Origin: an uncultured delta proteobacterium
GTDB lineage: Bacteria; Desulfobacterota; WTBG01; CAIYCZ01
NCBI GenBank assembly: GCA_963803975.1
Contig: CAWDOY010000003.1
Coordinates: forward strand, 319,919 to 383,918
DNA: 64,000 nt
Direction: 5' to 3'
The notes below the pieces were generated by a model that worked only from the letters and a program-made list of their open reading frames with translations, had not been told where the DNA came from and ran no database searches. Below, in pieces: positions 49,533 through 63,985 of the stretch; position 1 is the stretch's first letter, and each line of letters starts with the position of its first letter. The translations under genes were made by a program, and so were the position numbers.

Positions 49533-49997
49533 ATGCAGAAAAAATTATTATTTCTTTGCCTCGTGCTGTGTGTCGCAGCGTTTACAGCATGCGAATGCAA
49601 ACAGGTTGTGAAACAGGAACCGCCGCCGCCGCCACCGGCTCCGGCCCCGGTTGTTGAAGAGAAGATCGTGCTGAACGGAATTCGGTTCGACTTTGACAAG
49701 GCAGATATCAAGGCGGAATTTGTCCCTGTGCTTGATGAGGCAGTGGCCGTGCTGCAGAAACATTCCACCAAGATGGTCGCCATTGAAGGCCACACCGATG
49801 CAATCGGCTCCGATGCCTACAATGAGAAACTCGGCATGAGAAGATCAGAATCAGTAAAGAAGTACCTTGTTGATAAGGGCATTTCAGCAGGTAATCTGAC
49901 CACTGAAAGCTTTGGCGAATCAAAACCAGTTGCCGACAATAAGACCAAAGAAGGTCGGGCAATGAACCGCCGCGTGGAATTCAGGGTCGCTGAGTAA
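49533..49997 (+). CDS. OmpA/Pal-like peptidoglycan-binding lipoprotein
   Basis: AAGGAGG RBS; lipobox FTA-C; Pro linker; FDFDK, IEGHTD, NRRVE. Confidence 0.93.
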   Translation: MQKKLLFLCLVLCVAAFTACECKQVVKQEPPPPPPAPAPVVEEKIVLNGIRFDFDKADIKAEFVPVLDEAVAVLQKHSTKMVAIEGHTDAIGSDAYNEKLGMRRSESVKKYLVDKGISAGNLTTESFGESKPVADNKTKEGRAMNRRVEFRVAE

Positions 49998-50009
49998 CGA
50001 AGAGTCTTT

Positions 50010-50396
50010 ATGAAAAATGTTTTTTTGCTTGCATTGCTCCTCTGCTGCTCAACAGCTTTTGCTGCTGAGGATACCAGGGTGGAACAGAGTTTTAAAGACT
50101 TCTGCAAAAACTGGGTACAGATACTGAAGAAAAATAAACCCGGTAATGTCTTCTGCAAGGAATCAGCGGCAGGCTACATAGCAGAATATGCCACCATGGG
50201 TGACGAGCACAACACGGCGATCAAAAAAACGACCAATAAAAAGACTCCCTTTATCGGCATACTGAAGTACCGCGAAAAAGTATTTAAAAATTCAGCAGCA
50301 ACCCGCGAAAGGGCCATAGCCGGCCCTTTCAGGGTTGCGTCTGAACGTAACGTGACTGAACTTTTCATCTACCAGAACGGCGAGTGGCAGTGGTAA
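50010..50396 (+). CDS. Secreted hypothetical protein
   Basis: Signal peptide ending AFA; operonic spacing. Confidence 0.75.
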   Translation: MKNVFLLALLLCCSTAFAAEDTRVEQSFKDFCKNWVQILKKNKPGNVFCKESAAGYIAEYATMGDEHNTAIKKTTNKKTPFIGILKYREKVFKNSAATRERAIAGPFRVASERNVTELFIYQNGEWQW

Positions 50397-51193
50397 TGGC
50401 ACTGCCTGCCTCGCCCCTTTCATCGCATAAATCTTCCATCCTTTCTGCACTGCTTATCTTATCCATCTCTTTTGTAAACATTTCAGTCTGTTTTTCTCAA
50501 GCGGCACCTCCTGTTTCTCCGGGTATCGAAAAATGTCATGAGCTTGCGCGCAACAGGACTGACATGGCACTGTATCGCGAGGCGATACAATGTTACGAGC
50601 AGTCATTTGCCGCCGCGCCGCGGGAAGATACGGCCGTTAAACTCGGGAAATGCTATTACTGGCTGGGTACCCACGCAGCAAAAGACAAACAAATTGATCT
50701 TTTTCAAAAGGGAATCGACTGGTCTAAAAAGGCAATTGCATTAAATCCGAAAGGCACCGGAGGCCATTTCTGGCTGGGTGTTAATAACAGTAAATACGGT
50801 GAGGCACGGGGAATTCTAAAAAGCCTGTTTTTGGTCGGTTCTATTATAGACTCCATGCAGCAGGTAATTGCCATTGATCCTGCCTACGAGCATGGCGGGC
50901 CTTATCGGGTCCTTGGGAGGGTGTATTTCAAGCTGCCGCGCTTTGCCGGTGGCGGCATAAACAAATCAATAGAAAATTTAAAAAAATCGCTCGAATATGC
51001 ACCTAATATCTCCACTACCCATCTGTTTCTTGCAGAATCTTATATAGCACAGAAGGATTATCAGCGTGCACAGCAGGAATTGAATATAATCTTGAGCACT
51101 CCTGCAATTCCAGGCCTTGAGCCGGAATTCACTGCAGATAAGGAAGAAGCCCGGCGCCTGCGTGCTGAGGTCAATAAGAAATTAGAAGATTAG
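50396..51193 (+). CDS. Exported TPR protein, TatT/BstC-like
   Basis: TAATG coupling; TPR helices; GGPYRVLGRVYFKLPRFAGG motif. Confidence 0.75.
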   Translation: MALPASPLSSHKSSILSALLILSISFVNISVCFSQAAPPVSPGIEKCHELARNRTDMALYREAIQCYEQSFAAAPREDTAVKLGKCYYWLGTHAAKDKQIDLFQKGIDWSKKAIALNPKGTGGHFWLGVNNSKYGEARGILKSLFLVGSIIDSMQQVIAIDPAYEHGGPYRVLGRVYFKLPRFAGGGINKSIENLKKSLEYAPNISTTHLFLAESYIAQKDYQRAQQELNIILSTPAIPGLEPEFTADKEEARRLRAEVNKKLED

Positions 51194-51652
51194 CTGCTCT
51201 TCAAGGTTGGCTTTTGATTGGTACTATTGACGAAATAGAGATTCAGCGACATACCCGTTGCTGGCACATATTACCGCGTTGCGCTGGTCGGCAACCCTGA
51301 TGTCACACCTCTCCAGCAGCTCCTCTACAGAAGGGTAATAGCTCTTACCAATCCTCCATACTTTGGATATCCTAAGTAGCTATCAATAGACTATCTGTCT
51401 GTATGAGGCAGAAGAAGCGGCAATTATAATTGAGTAATTGAGTTTTTTCACCAAACTGCTGCTGTTGCTATGCTTTTTGGTGTTTTACTAACGCTGGTGT
51501 GTATAGGGCCACAGTAACCTTTTTTAGCAGCGGTTATGAGGCTGTTGCTGACTATTCGCTGCATCTAATTGTCTCGCAGTGGTGGAATGACGGGATAACG
51601 CGATCACTTTTTATAACTTTAACGTATATGTATAACAGACAACTATCATTTC

Positions 51653-52465
51653 ATGGGCAGAGCCGTCCGGCTGTTTCCGGTCCTGATTGCACTGGTAGTG
51701 GTGTTACCGTCCTGTGCATCTCATAAAGGAATGATTCCTCAGACTGAAACGCACGCCATTAGTGCGCTGGATGAAGCAGCGCTACTCTCCCTGGCGCATC
51801 GCTGTTATAAATTCAAGGGTCCCACTGAAGATGTGAAGCTTTCTCTCGAAGCTTCCGAACGCGTTTTACATAAGCAACCTCAAAACGAGCTCGCCAATTT
51901 CTACGCCGCCCGTGCAATCTCCTGGCTTATTGAGTTTGACGGTGGTGATGTGAAGACACTCGCCGGCCGCGGTTATACATACGCCAAGGTTGCGGAAAAA
52001 CTCGATGCGGCCCGTCCGGAGTATGCTTTTTTAGCGGGTGCTTTTCTGGGTTACCTCACTCGCGAAAGCCCCGTAACGCATGCAGGAAGTATAAAAGAAA
52101 TCTACGATGAGATGGGTCGCGCTGCAAAGGAAGACCCCGGCTACGAAGATGGTGCGCCGCTGCGTGCGCTCGGCATGCTGTTGGTAAAATCCCCGGCATG
52201 GCCGATAGGCGTCGGAGATGCTGAGGCAGGAATCGTTTTTTTACAGAAAGCCGCGCAGACCTTCCCCGCTTATCCTGCCAACCATCTTTACCTGGCTGAA
52301 GCCTGTCTGGATACTGGCCGAACAAAGGACGCTATTGCCGCCATGTCGAAAACGCAGCAGTCACTCTCATCGGGCACATGGGGAGTTCCCGGGCACGTCT
52401 GGAGCAAGCAACTCGAACGCCTGCGCGCTAAAACCTCTGAAAAGAACTCGTCGCACGTTGATTGA
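51653..52465 (+). CDS. TPR lipoprotein, BstC/TatT-like
   Basis: Lipobox LPS-C; GAPLRALGMLLVKSPAWPIGVGD and P.YPAN.L.LAEA motifs. Confidence 0.75.
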   Translation: MGRAVRLFPVLIALVVVLPSCASHKGMIPQTETHAISALDEAALLSLAHRCYKFKGPTEDVKLSLEASERVLHKQPQNELANFYAARAISWLIEFDGGDVKTLAGRGYTYAKVAEKLDAARPEYAFLAGAFLGYLTRESPVTHAGSIKEIYDEMGRAAKEDPGYEDGAPLRALGMLLVKSPAWPIGVGDAEAGIVFLQKAAQTFPAYPANHLYLAEACLDTGRTKDAIAAMSKTQQSLSSGTWGVPGHVWSKQLERLRAKTSEKNSSHVD

Positions 52466-52516
52466 AGCGGATGCGACTCTTGGAATTGCACATAAAATGA
52501 GCACTGAGGCGAGAGC

Positions 52517-55264
52517 ATGAATAACGGTCAGTTCAAAGTTACCGTTCGCGAACGGTTTTTCCGATCCCTGGCTTCCCTGACCATCAATCATAAAGCTTTG
52601 GTGTTCGCGGCGGTTGGAATTCTGACTGTCAGTTCTCTTATTGCCGTTCCATACCTGAAGGTCCGCACCACGCGTCAGGGTATGGCACAGGAAAACCTTA
52701 TCGCGCAGGTCAGGTTCAATAAGTACATGGACAACTTCGGCACGCCGACGCAATTGGTGGTGCTGCTCGAAGGTCAGCAGGATCAGGTGAAGGCAGCGGC
52801 TGATGCTGCAGCTGCGGCACTCTCCAGGGATAAACAGTGGGTACGGAACGTCTTTTATCGCGTAGACATCTCTTCTTTTGAGAAGTCCGGCCTTTACTAC
52901 TTGAAAACTGAGCATCTTCAGAAGGCGCGCTCGTTTTTGCAGGATCATCGACCCTGGCTCGCCAGCGTGCTCTCTTCAAAGTCACTCGCTGAAGCCCTCG
53001 ACCGAATAAGCACGTTTCCCGGAGCATCATCGATTCCGCCTGCTGAGCTCGAAGGTGCTTTTCAATACCTCGATGCACTGCTTGTGCAATGGGCGGATTT
53101 TCTGGTAAATTCTGATCAGAAGAAATTTGAACTGGTACCCAAAGACTTTGCCGACAAGCTTGCCGCGGAAGCGGGCGGTCAGATGACCGACGGTGGATAT
53201 ATCCTTGGGCGTGATGGCAAAAGCGCGCTGCTCTTTGTGCAGCAATCAAGGGATATCGATGATACGAGCTTCACCGTGCCGTTCATGGCTTACTGCCGCA
53301 CGTCTGTAGCCACTGCGCTCAAAAAGCATCCGGGTGTAACGGCCGGCTTCACCGGCTGGCCCGTTGCCATCGAAGAAGAGATGCAGCTGCTCACCAGAGA
53401 CCTGGGCATCGTGACCATCGGCTCGACGATAGGCATTCTTCTGCTGCTGCTGGTTTCATTCCGCTCGATCCGCAAGACGCTTTATGTTTTTGTCCCCCAT
53501 ACGTTCGGCGTCATCTGGAATCTCGGCGCTACCTACCTGGTAGTCGGACATCTGAACTATTTTTCTTCAGTATTTTTTGGGTTGTTATTCAGCCTCGGGA
53601 CCGAATATGGCATCATTTTCATCCGCCGATTTTCTGAGGAGCGAACGCGGGGCTGCGAACCGGAGGAAGCCATCATGCGCACGTTCCAGAACGTTGGCCC
53701 CGGTCTCGTTATATCGTCGCTGGCGACCGTGACATCGTTTATTGCAATTAGCGTCTCGGGAGTTCCCGGGCTCTCGGAGATGGGCACGGTCGCGGCTACC
53801 GGCATGTTCTGCCTGATCGTCGCGACACTCCTCATCCTGCCTCCGATGCTTCTCGTTTTCGGTATGCCATTTAGCGAAGCGACGGAAACGACCGTGGTCG
53901 GATCGAAAACCATCAATTGGATCTGGAGTTTGCTCGAGAGGGTTCCGGGTCTGGTTTTTGGGCTCGGCGTTGCAGTGACAATCATTGCCATCTCGCTGGT
54001 GCCGAAGCTTAAGTTTGATTACAACATCGACAACCTTCTCCCGGTACATAGTGAAACGCTCGCGGTCTCCGCAAAGCTGGAAAAGCTCACCGGCTATAAA
54101 TCACAATATTTAGTCGTTACCGGGGATACGGTAGACCAGGTGAGAAAGATACATCAGCTACTTCTACAAAAACCGACTGTTGAGAAAATTGAATCGTTAT
54201 CGTCAATTATTCCGGAGCACCAGGAGGAAAAGCAGAAACTGCTCATTTCGATGTCCGGAATGTTCACCGGCCTGCCGCAGATTAATTCAGGCGGTGTCAA
54301 CGACCTCACAGCGGTTCGCGTGAAGCTTTCTTACTTTATTGCGGCCCTCGAAAAGAAACAGGAAGACGCATTTTCAGCAGGACTTACAAAGATCGTCAGA
54401 CAACTCGACACGCTGATCGAGCGCCTCAATAGTATTGTCAAGCTCCTTGATTCCAAAGGCGCAACCACGAGAGAGGCTGCTTTTGAGGCTGCTGTGGCAA
54501 AATCTTTTACCGAGATGCATGACCGGCTTGCCCAGATGCTTACGGCAAGTCCGGTCACATTCGATACCATTCCGCAAGACCTGAAGGAACGATTTGTTGG
54601 CAAGGATGGAAAGCTTGCCATCATGGTTTTCCCGAAAGAGCAGATCTGGGACATTACTTTTCTTAAAGCATTTGTCACCGATGTGCGTAACGCAGCTACG
54701 CAGGTACTGGGCGATCAGGAATCCCTTGAACGCACCACGGGCTTTGGTGCGGTCTACCTCGTGACCTCGAAGATGGTCACGCGCGGTTTCCTAAAAGCCC
54801 TCCTGATGACTTTCGGCATGGTAGCCATACTCCTGTTGATCGACTTCAGGAGCATTCGCGATTCTGTCATGGCCGCACTGCCCGTTGTGGTCGGCATCTC
54901 CTGGACGCTGGCGGCTTTCGTGATCGTGGGCCGAGGCCTCAACATGGCGAGCCAGATCGCTTTGCCGGTGCTCATCGGTATCGGTGTCGATTTCGGCGTC
55001 CATACCGTTCACCGCTGGCGCGAGCCTGATGGCACTGATCTCGCTAAAGTAGTATCGACAATAGGCGGGTCGCTGTGGCTCGCTGGCGCGACGAACCTTA
55101 TCGGCTTCGGCCTCTTGCTTCTGGCGCAATACCGCGGACTTATATCGTTTGGTTTGATTGTGTTTGTTGGCATCTTTATTTGCTTTACCGGTGCAATGTT
55201 CGGTCTGCCCTCGACGATAAAAGCCCTGCGCCTTGATCGAGGACGTATCGACCAAAAGCATTAA
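52517..55264 (+). CDS. MMPL/RND lipid transporter (HpnN/BstA-like)
   Basis: Two repeats of 1 TM + large periplasmic domain + 5 TM; SLGTEYGI and GIGVDFGVH motifs. Confidence 0.9.
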   Translation: MNNGQFKVTVRERFFRSLASLTINHKALVFAAVGILTVSSLIAVPYLKVRTTRQGMAQENLIAQVRFNKYMDNFGTPTQLVVLLEGQQDQVKAAADAAAAALSRDKQWVRNVFYRVDISSFEKSGLYYLKTEHLQKARSFLQDHRPWLASVLSSKSLAEALDRISTFPGASSIPPAELEGAFQYLDALLVQWADFLVNSDQKKFELVPKDFADKLAAEAGGQMTDGGYILGRDGKSALLFVQQSRDIDDTSFTVPFMAYCRTSVATALKKHPGVTAGFTGWPVAIEEEMQLLTRDLGIVTIGSTIGILLLLLVSFRSIRKTLYVFVPHTFGVIWNLGATYLVVGHLNYFSSVFFGLLFSLGTEYGIIFIRRFSEERTRGCEPEEAIMRTFQNVGPGLVISSLATVTSFIAISVSGVPGLSEMGTVAATGMFCLIVATLLILPPMLLVFGMPFSEATETTVVGSKTINWIWSLLERVPGLVFGLGVAVTIIAISLVPKLKFDYNIDNLLPVHSETLAVSAKLEKLTGYKSQYLVVTGDTVDQVRKIHQLLLQKPTVEKIESLSSIIPEHQEEKQKLLISMSGMFTGLPQINSGGVNDLTAVRVKLSYFIAALEKKQEDAFSAGLTKIVRQLDTLIERLNSIVKLLDSKGATTREAAFEAAVAKSFTEMHDRLAQMLTASPVTFDTIPQDLKERFVGKDGKLAIMVFPKEQIWDITFLKAFVTDVRNAATQVLGDQESLERTTGFGAVYLVTSKMVTRGFLKALLMTFGMVAILLLIDFRSIRDSVMAALPVVVGISWTLAAFVIVGRGLNMASQIALPVLIGIGVDFGVHTVHRWREPDGTDLAKVVSTIGGSLWLAGATNLIGFGLLLLAQYRGLISFGLIVFVGIFICFTGAMFGLPSTIKALRLDRGRIDQKH

Positions 55265-55346
55265 CGACAGTAACCGGTTTGCGGTTTACAGACACAAAAC
55301 AAAGGAGTGAAAGGATAAATAAGACTTTTTTATTAGGAGGGCTTGA

Positions 55347-56189
55347 ATGTCGAAATTAAATATAATCCTCGCACTTACTGTGGTAGTAACTGTTTTTAAT
55401 TTCGAGCCTCACGCCGCCATTGCAGGTCCGCATGACCTGGTCGTCATCCGTCCAGGCGGCGCGACTGCCTCCGACGAAGCGCAGCAGAACGTGAATAATC
55501 TCCTCAAGCTGATCGCTCGTGCAGCAGGTTGGCCAGCAGAATCGGCTAATGCACGGTATTTCAATAATGAAAACGAAGGCTTGCAGTACATCCAGGCGAC
55601 AAAGCCGGGGTTCGTACTCGTCACGCCAGGCTTTTATCTCAAACACAGGATAAAACTTAACCTCACTCCTGTGAATAAAATCTCCCTTGCCGGCAGCACA
55701 ACGAGCAGTTTCTCCGTCGTTGCGAAAAAGGGTACACTCTCGGCACTTGCCGACCTTAAAAACAAGACTGTCGCAGGCTCTTCTCTCTCCGAACCCGAAT
55801 TCGTGCAGAAAATTGTTTTCGAAGGCACGCTGAAACTTGGCGCAGACGTTAAAGCGAAACAAATGAGTGGCTTGCCGGCCCTCAAAGCCTTACGTTCCGG
55901 AGAGGTTGATGCAGTTGTGCTCGATGCACAGGAATACCAGAGCCTGCCGGCACTTCCTTTTGCAACAGAATTCGCAACAATTTTTACCTCGAAGCCGATC
56001 ACGAACACGGGCATCATGGCAGCTGGCAAACATACAGACGACGCATCCATCAAAGCTTTGGTCCAAGCAACGAAGGAATTTTGCGCGACTGCCGACGGGA
56101 AAAACGTCTGCACAACTTTCCAGATCACCGGCTTCGAACCCGCGTCACAAAGAGACTACGACGATATGATCAAAAGATGGGAGGAATAA
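55347..56189 (+). CDS. Periplasmic binding protein, PhnD-like (BstB-like)
   Basis: GGAGG RBS; signal peptide; LADLKNKTVA and ALRSGEVDAVV type-II PBP motifs; GFEP...Y C-terminus. Confidence 0.8.
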   Translation: MSKLNIILALTVVVTVFNFEPHAAIAGPHDLVVIRPGGATASDEAQQNVNNLLKLIARAAGWPAESANARYFNNENEGLQYIQATKPGFVLVTPGFYLKHRIKLNLTPVNKISLAGSTTSSFSVVAKKGTLSALADLKNKTVAGSSLSEPEFVQKIVFEGTLKLGADVKAKQMSGLPALKALRSGEVDAVVLDAQEYQSLPALPFATEFATIFTSKPITNTGIMAAGKHTDDASIKALVQATKEFCATADGKNVCTTFQITGFEPASQRDYDDMIKRWEE

Positions 56190-56340: not shown

Positions 56341-57276
56341 ATGCAGTTTGCAATCGAAGCTCACAGCCTTGTCAAAAAATACGGTAGCATTACGGCGCTC
56401 GACGATATAACACTCGTGGTGAATCGGGGAGAAATATTCGGATTTCTCGGGCCCAACGGCGCAGGCAAAAGCACATTCGTCAAAATCATCCTCAATCTTG
56501 TACGCGCCACATCGGGAAGCGTCCGAATTTTCGGCGAACCGGTAACGAACGTTAAGGCAAGAAAGACTATCGGGTTTCTGCCTGAAAATATCCGTGTGTA
56601 CCCTTTTTTAAGCATTGAAGAATTTCTTCGCTTTCATTGTGAACTAATTGGAATAGCATCACAGAATATAAAGATGGCAATCGACAACTGCCTGTGTGCC
56701 ATGGAGCTTGAATCCGTGCGTGCACAAAAGATCGGGACACTGTCAAAAGGCATGCTCCAGAGAACGGGCATAGCCCAGGCAATGCTGGGGAATCCCGAGC
56801 TGCTGATTTTTGACGAACCCACCTCAGGCCTTGATCCCATCGGTTTTACCGAACTACGGCGACTTCTGCTTGCCATGAAAGCACGGGGCACGACCATATT
56901 TCTTAATTCGCACCAGCTCTCCGAGGTTGAACGGACCTGCGACCGCGTGGCAATCCTCAATAAAGGCAGAATCATCAAAATCGGCACCAGAGATGACCTG
57001 TCCGACCGGGGAAAACATCTTGAGGTAACTGCCGAAGGATTCACTGACGGCATGGCAGCTGCTATCAATGCCTTTTCTCAGAAAAACATTGAAACTGACG
57101 GCAAAAAATTGCGAATATACCTCAGCAACGAAAAAGACTCAGTCAACGTCCACAGAATCATCGTCGAGGCAGGGGGCCGCGTGCAGTCGCTGGCGTGGAA
57201 ATCCGAGTCACTTGAGGAACTTTTTTACAGACTGGTAAAAAATGAAGATATGGGCTTTAACAAAGATCGGCCTTAA
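56341..57276 (+). CDS. ABC-2 type exporter ATP-binding protein
   Basis: GPNGAGKST, LSKGMLQR, DEPTSGLDP, SH. Confidence 0.95.
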   Translation: MQFAIEAHSLVKKYGSITALDDITLVVNRGEIFGFLGPNGAGKSTFVKIILNLVRATSGSVRIFGEPVTNVKARKTIGFLPENIRVYPFLSIEEFLRFHCELIGIASQNIKMAIDNCLCAMELESVRAQKIGTLSKGMLQRTGIAQAMLGNPELLIFDEPTSGLDPIGFTELRRLLLAMKARGTTIFLNSHQLSEVERTCDRVAILNKGRIIKIGTRDDLSDRGKHLEVTAEGFTDGMAAAINAFSQKNIETDGKKLRIYLSNEKDSVNVHRIIVEAGGRVQSLAWKSESLEELFYRLVKNEDMGFNKDRP

Positions 57277-58036
57277 AGAGTGCCTCAGGCAGCGCGTGGT
57301 ATATTTCATCTTCCTGATCTCGCTGTTGTTTGTTTTCATGGCAAAAGGCTGCGACATCGGCACGATCAAGAGCGAGAACTTGCTCATCGGCAAAGAGGCG
57401 CGCCAGGGCATTGCATTTGGGATATCATTTCACGGTATCGTTTTCTGGAGCATCATGCTGTGCGGACTACTGGCATCGCAGGCGCTCACACGCGATATGG
57501 ACGAAGGCTTTGCTTCTGCAACACTTGCCCGGCCCTTAGGTCGCGACGCATATATTGCTGGCAAATTGCTGCCCGTTATTATTATTTCAACTCTTAACCT
57601 CACTGTTTTAGGCGGGCTGTTCTGCTGGTTTTTCTATAGGGCTACCGGCGGTATCACCATGCAGATCCCGCTCAGTTTTTTGTTCATGACGCTAAGTCTT
57701 GCGCTCTACGGCCTCATGATTTTCTGCCTGTCGCTGTTCATCCCGCGGCAGCTGGCACCGCTGGCAGGCATTGTGGTGTATATGATAAGCTGCTGGTCGT
57801 CCTTGCCCTATTCTGTTGAAAACCTGAAGATATTCTGGACGCCGTCGGCAACGGTGCAGCGTTTGCATCTGCTGTTGCCCAAGTTCGGCGATTTGCAATG
57901 TATCGGTGCCTCTATATTAAGCGGGCAGCAACCTTTCGATTTAGTCAACCCGCTCGCGGTACTGGGCAACATAGCGGCATATGCCAGTGTGTTCTGGTAT
58001 GTCACAGTCTGGGTCTTCAAGCGACGTGAACTGTAA
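57242..58036 (+). CDS. ABC-2 type exporter permease
   Basis: About 6 TMs, RP..R..Y..GK motif, FKRREL C-terminus. Confidence 0.88.
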   Translation: MKIWALTKIGLKECLRQRVVYFIFLISLLFVFMAKGCDIGTIKSENLLIGKEARQGIAFGISFHGIVFWSIMLCGLLASQALTRDMDEGFASATLARPLGRDAYIAGKLLPVIIISTLNLTVLGGLFCWFFYRATGGITMQIPLSFLFMTLSLALYGLMIFCLSLFIPRQLAPLAGIVVYMISCWSSLPYSVENLKIFWTPSATVQRLHLLLPKFGDLQCIGASILSGQQPFDLVNPLAVLGNIAAYASVFWYVTVWVFKRREL

Positions 58037-61228: not shown

Positions 61229-62170
61229 CTATATATAATTAGTATTATCAATCTGAATGTAAGATTTGTCAGGACTGATAAATAGGCTATGCGTTTCATT
61301 GTCACCGCTATCATAGTTAAGCTGTAGCTGGCTACCCGATACCTGGTACTGTCCTCCCCAAGAAGTCTCGCCTGAATAATAGTTCCATGTAATCCAGCAA
61401 AATGTGCTTACACCATCAAATTGATATTTAAACATTTCAGGATCAGCCTGCTTGCCGTAGCAGCCCTTGAGGTCTGCATTGCCCCCGCCCCCGCCTCCCC
61501 CGGGAATAGTTGTCGTGGTGCCTGATGATCCCCCGGGGAAACAAACAGTAGCACCCGGATCTCCTTGACATGTATAGCCAGCCCTGCAATCAGTATTAGT
61601 ACTGCATGCGTCAAGACACAGAGCCTGCTTCTGCCCCTGTTCATCTTGTACCTGGTAACAATAAGCACCCTGGCCGCAATCAGAATTACTTGAACATGAC
61701 TTGGTACAATATCCGCCTGGTGAACTGGTTATACAGGTAAGACCTGGGTCACAGGTGCCGCATGCTGCACCTATTCCTCCCCCTGTTCCACCGCCTCCTC
61801 CCGGTGCAGTTGTTGTTGTGCTGCCCCCGCCCCCCTCACTAATAGTAACTTTTGCAGTAGCGCTCACTGTCGGATCAGAGATAGAACTAACGCGCACTGT
61901 TGCAATAGGGGGTGATGGCAGCAAGTCTGGGGCAATATAGAGACCATCTTCTACAACGGTACCCCATGCATCACCTTCATCAACAGTCCAGCTTACTTGA
62001 GCATTAGACGGAGTTACCGTGGCCTGGAATTGCTGTGTTTGCCCTAATTCAACGGCGGCCGTCTGTGGTGAGATGGTAATTGTAACTTTTCCGTTTCTAC
62101 ATCCAGAAAGAAAAACAATACCCAGAACCATAAGATATAGCATGCGATTTTGATAATAATTGTTTTTCAT
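61229..62170 (-). CDS. Lipoprotein with Ig-like domain and Cys-rich repeats
   Basis: Lipobox LSG-C; VTITISP..GQTQQF.ATV Ig-like domain; T/G linkers; GGYCTKSC...C.C module. Confidence 0.8.
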   Translation of the reverse strand: MKNNYYQNRMLYLMVLGIVFLSGCRNGKVTITISPQTAAVELGQTQQFQATVTPSNAQVSWTVDEGDAWGTVVEDGLYIAPDLLPSPPIATVRVSSISDPTVSATAKVTISEGGGGSTTTTAPGGGGGTGGGIGAACGTCDPGLTCITSSPGGYCTKSCSSNSDCGQGAYCYQVQDEQGQKQALCLDACSTNTDCRAGYTCQGDPGATVCFPGGSSGTTTTIPGGGGGGGNADLKGCYGKQADPEMFKYQFDGVSTFCWITWNYYSGETSWGGQYQVSGSQLQLNYDSGDNETHSLFISPDKSYIQIDNTNYI

Positions 62171-62198: not shown

Positions 62199-63985
62199 TG
62201 TCAAAAGTTTTTTAGATATTATTGCTAAACTCCAAGCAACTTCATAGCGTTAGTGTAAAGCAGCTTGCCTCCCCCCACAATTGTGTGTTTAATAAAACAA
62301 TTTGTGAAACAGGGGAGGTCACGGTATGCCTAAAATTGCTCGCTTTGTTATTTGGATCTGTTCAAAGTTTACCCGCAAAGAAATAGAACTTATTATTAAC
62401 GGACTGATAGATGTCCTGCACAACCGTAACCCGGAGATAAAACCAAAAGATGATTTCAAACAGAAACATCCTCAGTATAGATCCTTTTCTATAGACCCTC
62501 ACCCTCCGTTAACAGAGATGCCTGATGCAAAACAAAAAAAACCTTCCACCCACTATAAACTCATTCTGACTGAGTATGAAGCGCTACACGGAAAACCCCT
62601 GCGCCCGGTGAAACGTCGTGCATCATCACCGCAAGTGCCGACCACAACGATTTGCCCACACTGCTCCGCCCCGCACTCCTATCTCTATTACAATGACGGC
62701 CGCCAGCGATCTCAAGTGCGATGCAAGGTCTGTGGCCACCTGTTTCTCATCAGCATGCGCTTCCGGGAAAAAAAACTAAATACTACTGCCCCCATTGTCA
62801 GCATGCCCTGTTTATCTGGAAAGTCCGCCCGGAGGTCACTATCTATAAATGCGGTAATGATTCCTGCCCGCACCGTATCCAGAACCTTAATAAACTTAAT
62901 CCCGCTGAACGGCTCCTGCGTAACGGCCGCTCTTCTCAATTTAAGCTGTGCTATCAGTATCGGGAGTACCACTTCCAGCCCCGGCAACTCCAGCACTCTG
63001 CTCCCCTAAAACCCAAAGTTGACATCACCAAAATCCATAACTCAGCCAACATCCTGGGCCTCATCTTAACCTTCTATGTCTCCTTTGCCATCAGTGCCAG
63101 AAAATCAGCCCTGATGCTGCGCTCGGTCTTTAATGTCCCGGTTTCCTATCAAACCGTCCTCAATTACGCTGAGGCTGCTTCATATTACTGCCACCGCTTT
63201 AACCGCGCCTTTAAAGGACCTGTCGATGATCTCAGCGCCGGGGATGAAACCTATATCAAAATCAACGGCAAACACGCTTATACCTTCCTGTTCATCTCTT
63301 CCCAAAGGCACGCCATCACTGCTTACCATGTCGCTGACAACAGAGGCACTGTTCCAGCTCTTGCGGCTATCAATGAAGCCATCAGAACCGCCCAGCCAGA
63401 CCAGTCAATAGGCATTGTTACCGATGACAACCCTTCCTATGCTGCTGCGATCCTCTACCTCAATACCCTCCCTGATAAGCACCCCGCTATAACCCATCAT
63501 AAAGTCATTGGCCTGCAAAACCTGGATGAACAATCAACCGAGTTCAGGCCATTTAAACAACTCATTGAGCGCCTCAACAGAACCTATAAACAGCACATCA
63601 GACCGTCCCATGGGTTTAACTCCCCCAATGGCGCTGTCGCTCTTACCACGCTGTTTGTCACTCACTACAACTTCCTGCGCCCGCATATGGCGCTCAATTA
63701 CCAGCCGCCTATCCAACTGCCGGCCCTTGACTCGATCACTACCATTCAGGGCAAATGGACCAAAATACTGTCACTGGCTGCCTGACTACGCTTCCTGTTT
63801 ATCAAAAAGCTTTTTTGCCGGGGTGTCTTCAGTACGTTTTACCCTTTTGTTCGTTGTCTACCTTTTTTGAAATTTCTTCCTCCGTTGTACGGTTCCCTTG
63901 TCTCGTTGTGCTTCCGAGGTTATGCCTGCTGCCTCGCTATCCTGTTATTCATTCTCCTATCCTATCTTTCATAGAAGTTTTGACA
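62199..63985 (+). mobile_element. Insertion sequence (~1.79 kb) with TGTCAAAA terminal inverted repeats
   Basis: TGTCAAAAGTT at 62199; AAGTTTTGACA ending at 63985; encloses a DDE transposase. Confidence 0.8.
62326..63785 (+). CDS. DDE transposase with zinc-ribbon motifs (IS6/IS240-like DDE core); -1 shift at A8 62768-62775
   Basis: CPHC/CKVC/CPHC; GDETY, VTDDNPSY and IERLNRTYK; HYNFLRPH. Confidence 0.88.

Follow-up and report, generated by a model that had tools for sequence, protein, structure and literature searches.

A divergent BstABC-like trio in a genome without a detected triterpene cyclase: a possible relay for scavenged sterol

Introduction

The closest described system to the locus analyzed here is BstABC of Methylococcus capsulatus (PMC10942540; structures 7T1M and 7T1S; NCBIfam NF045600-NF045602). 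In the accessible text of that work, sterol binding by BstC requires residue E86, mutation of the head-group contacts in BstB had effects of less than twofold, and Deltaproteobacteria are noted in the BstC cluster (PMC10942540). The direction of transport was proposed rather than shown, and deletion failed; as far as the accessible text goes, sterol makers are the only organisms in which the system has been described, and the authors raise the question of what bacteria that acquire sterols do with them (PMC10942540, PMC11713862). Other systems share single parts of this architecture: the hopanoid transporter HpnN (5KHN, TIGR03480), the TatT/TPAT proteins Tp0956 and Es_TatT with their helical TPR-like fold and central cavity (8G52/8G53; PMC11713862, accessible part), and the PhnD proteins of phosphonate ABC import.

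Here, a window of 64,000 nucleotides from the genome of an uncultured delta proteobacterium (assembly GCA_963803975.1, contig CAWDOY010000003.1) was analyzed. An initial annotation, made from the letters alone, had described three linked genes of Bst type in it and had asked which lipid they could carry.

Results and Discussion

The trio and its relation to BstABC

The three genes are separated by gaps of 51 nt (C-A) and 82 nt (A-B) and lie on the same strand:

51653..52465, + strand: BstC-like TatT/TPR lipoprotein, 270 aa, with lipobox LPS-C21 (Cys21); contains APLRALGMLLVKSPAWPIGVGD
52517..55264, + strand: BstA-like MmpL/HpnN-type RND transporter, 915 aa
55347..56189, + strand: BstB-like periplasmic binding protein, 280 aa

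Open reading frames are present where the initial annotation had placed a TPR lipoprotein, a 915-aa MMPL/RND transporter and a PhnD-like binding protein, and Pfam agrees, with matches to TPR, MMPL (E 3e-36) and Phosphonate-bd (E 4e-14), respectively. The Bst homology claimed there was borne out by NCBIfam models, by PDB sequence matches and, for B and C, by Foldseek comparison of predicted folds. In the PDB sequence search, the top match of the binding protein was BstB (7T1M, E 4.9e-36), that of the lipoprotein BstC (7T1S, E 2.9e-21) and that of the RND protein HpnN (5KHN, E 1e-43); BstA has no solved structure. Identity to the M. capsulatus proteins (locus L169) lies within 26-33%, at 33% for BstC, about 27% for BstA and 31% for BstB. 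The trio proteins and M. capsulatus BstC, BstA and BstB are related but divergent.

Regarding the latter system, the likeness extends to the grouping of three components in one cluster, to best sequence and fold matches for B and C, and to a common branch in three trees. The gene order is C-A-B here rather than A-B-C, osc, smo and sdmAB are absent from the vicinity of the trio, and neither cyclase nor epoxidase was detected in the genome. The scores against NCBIfam lie below the equivalog cut-offs, at 94 bits against 350 for BstC (NF045602), 391 against 1400 for BstA (NF045600) and 188 against 350 for BstB (NF045601), and the HpnN model TIGR03480 gives the RND protein 401 bits (cut-off 752), which is comparable with its BstA score. 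Because the equivalog cut-offs are not reached and linkage to sterol synthesis is missing, the trio is regarded as a variant, and not as a member, of BstABC.

A simple scan of the RND protein returned 11 hydrophobic segments. Its acidic residues E363 and D825, which we take to be the proton-relay acids, sit in two transmembrane GxDxG-type motifs. Each trio gene is single-copy in the genome, except for one distant TatT paralog upstream. In a check of composition for recent transfer, the GC content of the trio is 50-54%, and its codon score, at the 8th to 12th percentile among 1573 long ORFs, resembles that of its neighbours.

Boundaries and conservation of the module

The eight genes between 49533 and 58036 were scanned for partners. 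The downstream ABC pair (56341-58036) is an ABC-2/DrrA-type exporter according to Pfam and NCBIfam, not a binding-protein importer, so that the binding protein does lack a cognate ABC import permease, as first proposed. No TRAP P, Q or M gene was found among the eight, and in contrast to TatT/TPAT systems the lipoprotein is paired with an RND transporter and a PhnD-fold protein. Upstream lies a block (49533-51193) that is conserved in the family; it consists of an ompA gene, an orphan ORF of 128 aa and another TatT-like gene (50384-51193), which is more distant and which the first reading had overlooked. The encoded second TatT-like protein lacks the E86 site. This gene was rejected as part of the trio, its ompA-orf-tatT block being kept in family genomes that lack the trio (G002 and G003); the ABC-2 pair was likewise rejected, other DNA lying upstream of it in G001. 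Loose ends at 51197 and 56306 in other strains bound the three genes, and the module is the trio alone.

The initial annotation had named synteny in other genomes as a check, and the trio is indeed kept together elsewhere, in C-A-B order in L038 and L042 (74-91% identity) and in A-B-C order with varying flanks in L044-L046. Most of the 17 metagenome loci do not extend far enough to show all three genes; in L043 (17 kb), B is present and A and C are absent. Within the family, the trio is present in one of four genomes and was not found in G001-G003 (91, 89 and 98% complete). Comparison with five related loci gave dN/dS values of 0.15-0.29. Patchy occurrence in the family, changing flanks and these dN/dS values together identify the trio as an accessory, selected unit.

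A promoter and terminator scan of the locus remained at chance level, and an Rfam scan of the window returned three tRNAs only. In two metatranscriptome runs from a single study, contigs match parts of the trio with 90-99% identity. They extend over the neighbours as well, and the samples may contain DNA, so that they do not attest transcription. The trio is listed for 18 DNA runs; 15 of these carry a freshwater or sediment metagenome label, and the two examined cover all 30 bins. Further downstream, between 58304 and 63785, the window contains fragmented secreted-protein ORFs on the minus strand, an Ig-domain lipoprotein-like ORF (61229-62170) and overlapping ORFs judged transposase-like from their sequence (62326-63785).

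Predicted structures and pockets

The AlphaFold model of the binding protein (pLDDT 90.6) was matched best by 7T1M in Foldseek (TM 0.84/0.91, rmsd 2.0 Å, E 8e-28), with a runner-up at E 3e-18, whereas phosphonate binders appeared at E 1e-13 or weaker. The lipoprotein model (pLDDT 88.0) was matched best by BstC 7T1S (TM 0.70/0.80, E 2e-10), followed at E 5e-6 by the fatty-acid TatT 8G52; the objection, listed in the initial annotation, that it might lack BstC similarity does not apply. Pocket sites were then mapped from the residue lists in the accessible part of PMC10942540. In the tail pocket of the binding protein, 14 of the 19 sites are hydrophobic (18 of 19 in BstB), five are identical and four are more polar, while the BstB head-group triad E118/Y120/N192 is replaced by S120/F122/D193. 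Judged from these residues, the pocket is of the lipid type rather than the phosphonate type, and the protein is probably not tuned to 4-methylsterol.

A phosphonate-type binding protein, which the initial annotation had listed as a possible objection, is accordingly ruled out at the level of fold, the nearest relative being BstB and not PhnD. It is highly improbable that the genes are a decaying relic or that the binding protein serves phosphonate import. Three scores far under the equivalog cut-offs and a patchy distribution in the family would fit such a reading, but the frames are intact, gene order is kept in relatives, dN/dS is low and no cognate importer is present; fold comparison and dN/dS together largely refute it.

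In the lipoprotein, 12 of 29 BstC cavity residues are kept, including E86 (as E94), R132, M170, K174, W241 and W248, and F208 is replaced by Y. E94 (codon 51932-51934) aligns with the sterol-hydroxyl-binding E86. This site is acidic in 36 of 38 rows from genomes with an oxidosqualene cyclase (OSC), the other two being gaps, and in all eight near relatives, and the acid is mostly absent from 19 rows of the hopanoid clade, where K, G or V is commonest. That clade has a BstC signature of its own, E170, R174 and G208, none of which occurs in the window lipoprotein. The diagnostic sites (86, 170, 174 and 208) were picked after inspection of the residue table. The acid at site 86 is not specific to sterol, since it is also found in 13 of the 16 rows of a third clade, some of them beside squalene synthases. 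Identity over the whole cavity was rejected as a cargo classifier: the 29 sites give no discrimination, the window protein sharing on average 9.9 identical residues with OSC rows, 9.2 with hopanoid rows and 9.2 with third-clade rows.

Family survey and trees

A degenerate BstC motif, used as the query, returned 120 loci from about 40 of the 64 parts of the genome collection, with divergent branches under-sampled; 119 of them match the window lipoprotein by blastp. Cyclases were sought with TIGR03463 at 100 loci (99 genomes), the remaining 20 loci being mostly methanotroph bins, and classes were assigned by score. In this set of genomes, which are related to one another and mostly given without completeness, 37 were OSC-like, 28 had only a match like squalene-hopene cyclase (SHC) and 34, about a third, had none. 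Some labels in the last class may be wrong, because it includes G039, whose split divergent cyclase escaped TIGR03463. Several SHC-only methanotroph bins probably miss their OSC through incompleteness.

Several loci deserve mention in their own right. Near-canonical bstABC genes occur in six Desulfobacterota in which no cyclase was found (L015, L017, L019, L021, L080 and L084, from G030, G036, G034, G041, G422 and G400). The BstB scores of the first four reach up to the NCBIfam cut-off, and the genome G030 has a completeness of 98%. Two of the loci, L015 and L017, show a split bstA, which an assembly error may explain. Divergent DxDD triterpene cyclases are present in the class of the host (L225:3702-5498, L226:1-1425 and L227, in G026, G028 and G039), with low SHC scores and PF13243 matches at E 1e-52 to 1e-63, the copy in G039 being partial; comparable scores were obtained for G018 and G020. 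On a contig titled Thermoplasmatota archaeon (L108) lies a methanotroph-type bstABC, which is probably misbinned, because it is nested inside Methylococcaceae in the tree.

Trees were built for BstA (80 rows, FastTree), BstB (39 and 56 rows) and BstC (39 and 55 rows), the 39-row sets being hand-picked to span the BstA tree. Support values are of SH type from quick or FastTree methods, and the BstA outgroup sits on long branches. In the BstA tree, the window protein falls in a 62-row group (support 99) with every row from an OSC genome, separate from a 13-row group in which all are SHC. In the BstB and BstC trees, it falls in a 28-row group with all nine OSC rows (SH-aLRT 97 and 92), which stands apart from both the hopanoid clade and the third clade. 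Thus placed by all three trees, the trio groups with the Bst proteins of sterol producers, outside the hopanoid-linked clade. Its position within this branch varies: the two BstB trees put it with a group of spirochaete OSC rows (support 95 and 83), the C trees with another pair, and it lies in a polytomy in the BstA tree, at about 1.7 changes per site from its nearest named relatives along long branches.

Three branches can be observed, namely a hopanoid-linked branch of Desulfobacterota, the branch of OSC-genome rows with the window trio, and an Acidobacteriota branch that is absent from the BstA tree. Two loci of the first sit among hpn genes, and trios with HpnN-like transporters in Desulfobacterota (L083 and L085) lie inside shc/hpnH/hpnA clusters. 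As far as these trees reach, at least three branches make up the family, one hopanoid-linked, one sterol-linked and one mostly cyclase-less, the last being partly linked to squalene synthases. In the third clade, 15 of 17 genomes lack a full cyclase, 6 of the 17 fetched loci have a squalene-synthase-like gene next to bstC, and mevalonate-pathway genes were seen in three that were scanned. At L273, L275, L276, L280, L282 and L284, a complete A-B-C trio is followed directly after bstC by the synthase-like gene in a genome with no cyclase; such trios are candidate exporters of acyclic squalene.

The nearest named relatives

Among named loci, L124, L128 and L157 come closest to the trio, with 38-46% identity; they belong to one phylum, two being titled Acidobacteriota, and form the sister group of the trio with support of 99-100. 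No cyclase was found in their genomes by two models. In all three, bstC directly adjoins genes for a FadL/TodX channel, an SDR of 3β-HSD-like type and a steroid 5α-reductase (PF02544, E about 1e-53):

L124:7639-10790: FadL-HSD-5α-reductase block adjoining the Bst-like trio
L128:9335-12508: FadL-HSD-5α-reductase block adjoining the Bst-like trio
L157:5433-8585: FadL-HSD-5α-reductase block adjoining the Bst-like trio

The contigs of L044-L046 still reach FadL before they break off. Being close kin (FadL 72-89% identical), the six loci together amount to roughly one event. A comparable pairing of a 3β-HSDH with a PF02544 5α-reductase is known from a bile-acid cluster of Bacteroidetes, where, according to the accessible part of the report, the pair yields 3β-hydroxy-5α bile acids (10.1101/2021.01.08.425963). 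Unlike that cluster, the pair in the relatives is joined to FadL and the Bst trio; it is absent from the host.

The association was followed in a first batch of BstC-motif genomes. A strong 5α-reductase (PF02544, E<=1e-38) was detected in 17 of 24 cyclase-less genomes, in 8 of 11 with OSC and in none of 15 with SHC only. Among 151 genomes of the relatives' phylum, 10 have the 5α-reductase, 20 a BstB-like gene and six both, of which three are the relatives themselves. Fisher p values of 7e-6 and 4e-4 for these associations overstate the case, because kin among the genomes are not independent. The gene content of the flank suggests sterol salvage in the relatives, and the FadL-HSD-5α-reductase block beside the trio in cyclase-less genomes is a candidate stenol-to-stanol pathway. 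FdfT-like genes are also present elsewhere in all three genomes; being 28-31% identical to that of the host and in an unrelated operon, they were rejected as trio-tied orthologs.

Lipid genes of the host and competing cargoes

The host genome measures 4.25 Mb in 57 contigs and is 98.1% complete. PF13243, PF13249 and PF08491 have no match in it, and tblastn with OSC, SHC and a divergent cyclase of the same class returned nothing at E<=1e-4. The statement that no cyclase or epoxidase lies near the trio therefore holds for the window and, on these Pfam models and tblastn searches, extends to the whole genome, in which no oxidosqualene cyclase, squalene-hopene cyclase or squalene epoxidase was found. 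None of the three other family genomes gave a cyclase either. The host had initially been called a probable anaerobe, a label that needs a caveat: if it belongs to the class Ca. Anaeropigmentia, described in the accessible text as fermentative, carotenoid-making and able to respire low oxygen (10.1101/2021.03.22.436540), low-oxygen respiration is predicted.

It is very unlikely that a hopanoid or sterol cargo is supplied by a cyclase that the assembly lacks or that escaped detection through divergence. An assembly that is 98% complete in 57 contigs, the divergent DxDD cyclases of five same-class genomes and a host synthase 58% identical to that of cyclase-bearing G039 would leave room for it, but two Pfam cyclase domains and the divergent cyclase query found no match, and a cyclase is absent from all four family genomes and from the three nearest trio relatives. 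A hopanoid cargo in particular is not supported by these sequence comparisons, with no SHC in the host and the trio outside the hopanoid-linked clade.

The main rival to a sterol cargo is an acyclic triterpene that the cell would make itself (squalene or a hydroxylated form of it) and export to the outer membrane, because an orphan gene resembling squalene synthase occurs in the host and trios of a sister clade lie beside such synthases. The FdfT-like gene (C1:160122-161153, equivalent to L005:10123-11154; minus strand) adjoins a FadL gene, has an intact frame and scores 125 bits against TIGR01559, below the cut-off; no cyclase is present to consume its product. The cyclase-poor third clade, with its synthase-like genes beside bstC, and the FdfT-like genes of the three nearest relatives fit the same reading. 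On the other hand, the host synthase is unlinked to the trio, and its product is uncertain because the second aspartate-rich motif is altered, with RG where others have RD or KD, a change shared with G039. Furthermore, G001 has the synthase (97% identity) with no trio found (91% complete, 610 contigs), the trio lies outside the synthase-linked clade, and 18 of 24 cyclase-less genomes lack any PF00494 gene. On balance, this export is doubtful.

Retargeting of the trio to an unrelated host lipid is unlikely, whether a carotenoid glycoside, a compound made by the fatty-acid/polyketide island or, in the manner of TatT, a long-chain fatty acid. The host does carry crtE/crtB/crtI with a glycosyltransferase and a ketosynthase (fatty-acid/polyketide) island, the BstB pocket is remodelled, and relatives of the TatT fold bind fatty acids (PMC11713862, accessible part). 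Against this, crtB occurs in all four family genomes and the trio in one, both clusters are unlinked to the trio, and BstC 7T1S outranks the fatty-acid TatT structures 8G52/8G53 by sequence and fold.

Other steroid genes of the host were considered. No KstD was found, only FAD-motif matches, and steroid catabolism was rejected. A 5α-reductase or ERG4/ERG24 of its own was also rejected: the 5α-reductase search gave a DUF1295-type match only (E 1.7e-7), ERG4/ERG24 gave nothing above cut-off, and what was seen were distant DUF1295 and ICMT-type matches. Matches to the relatives' FadL share 21-27% identity and are not orthologs, and the HSD-like matches are located in the fatty-acid/polyketide island.

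Proposed relay for scavenged sterol

From homology, fold, synteny, phylogenetic placement, selection and the absence of a cyclase, we infer a cargo, a direction and a hand-off. The trio may be a BstABC-type shuttle from the inner to the outer membrane whose cargo is sterol scavenged from sediment organic matter, a reading to which we give a probability of roughly 45%. A sterol cargo would have to be external, because the host genome has no cyclase. In such a relay, the RND pump would lift the lipid from the inner membrane, driven by the proton gradient, and the periplasmic protein would shield it inside a hydrophobic cleft. Subsequently, the lipoprotein would take it over, with the 3-hydroxyl held at E94, and release it at the outer membrane. 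Of the cargoes first proposed, scavenged sterol is thus the best supported option, and a hopanoid or tetrahymanol-like lipid is disfavoured by the missing SHC and the position outside the hopanoid-linked clade.

In the nearest relatives, a full loop can be envisaged, in which uptake by FadL would be followed by 3β-HSD-like oxidation, 5α-reduction and return to the outer membrane. The host lacks orthologs of these salvage genes (FadL, HSD-like and 5α-reductase), which counts against the salvage reading, and our confidence is held at the level given above because only the export leg was found there. With this leg alone, the host could send back sterols that have strayed into the inner membrane; alternatively, the trio could act after an unrecognised modification.

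Implications

A literature search found no description of a Bst trio in cyclase-less genomes, although the supplementary cluster lists of PMC10942540 may include such genomes; nor did it find one of a Bst-type relay for acyclic triterpenes. Were squalene the cargo, Bst-type relays would carry acyclic triterpenes too. A wider version of the sterol-salvage reading is possible, if somewhat doubtful: this Bst branch may be the export leg of a bacterial salvage loop, through which sediment bacteria unable to make sterols would take up those of algae and plants, reduce them, in the case of the Acidobacteriota relatives, to 5α-stanols by way of the neighbouring HSD and 5α-reductase, and insert them in their own outer membrane. 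To our knowledge, the genes for stenol-to-stanol conversion are not known, and none is named in the titles or opening abstracts returned by the search. The ratio of stanol to sterol is a marker of anaerobic microbial transformation according to the accessible part of PMC7292411. If the salvage reading is true, free-living sediment bacteria would use borrowed sterols as membrane lipids, genes and organisms would be named for the conversion behind this geochemists' marker of anaerobic reworking, and the FadL-HSD-5α-reductase-Bst cluster would offer a candidate for the microbial reduction of stenols to stanols that can be tested directly.
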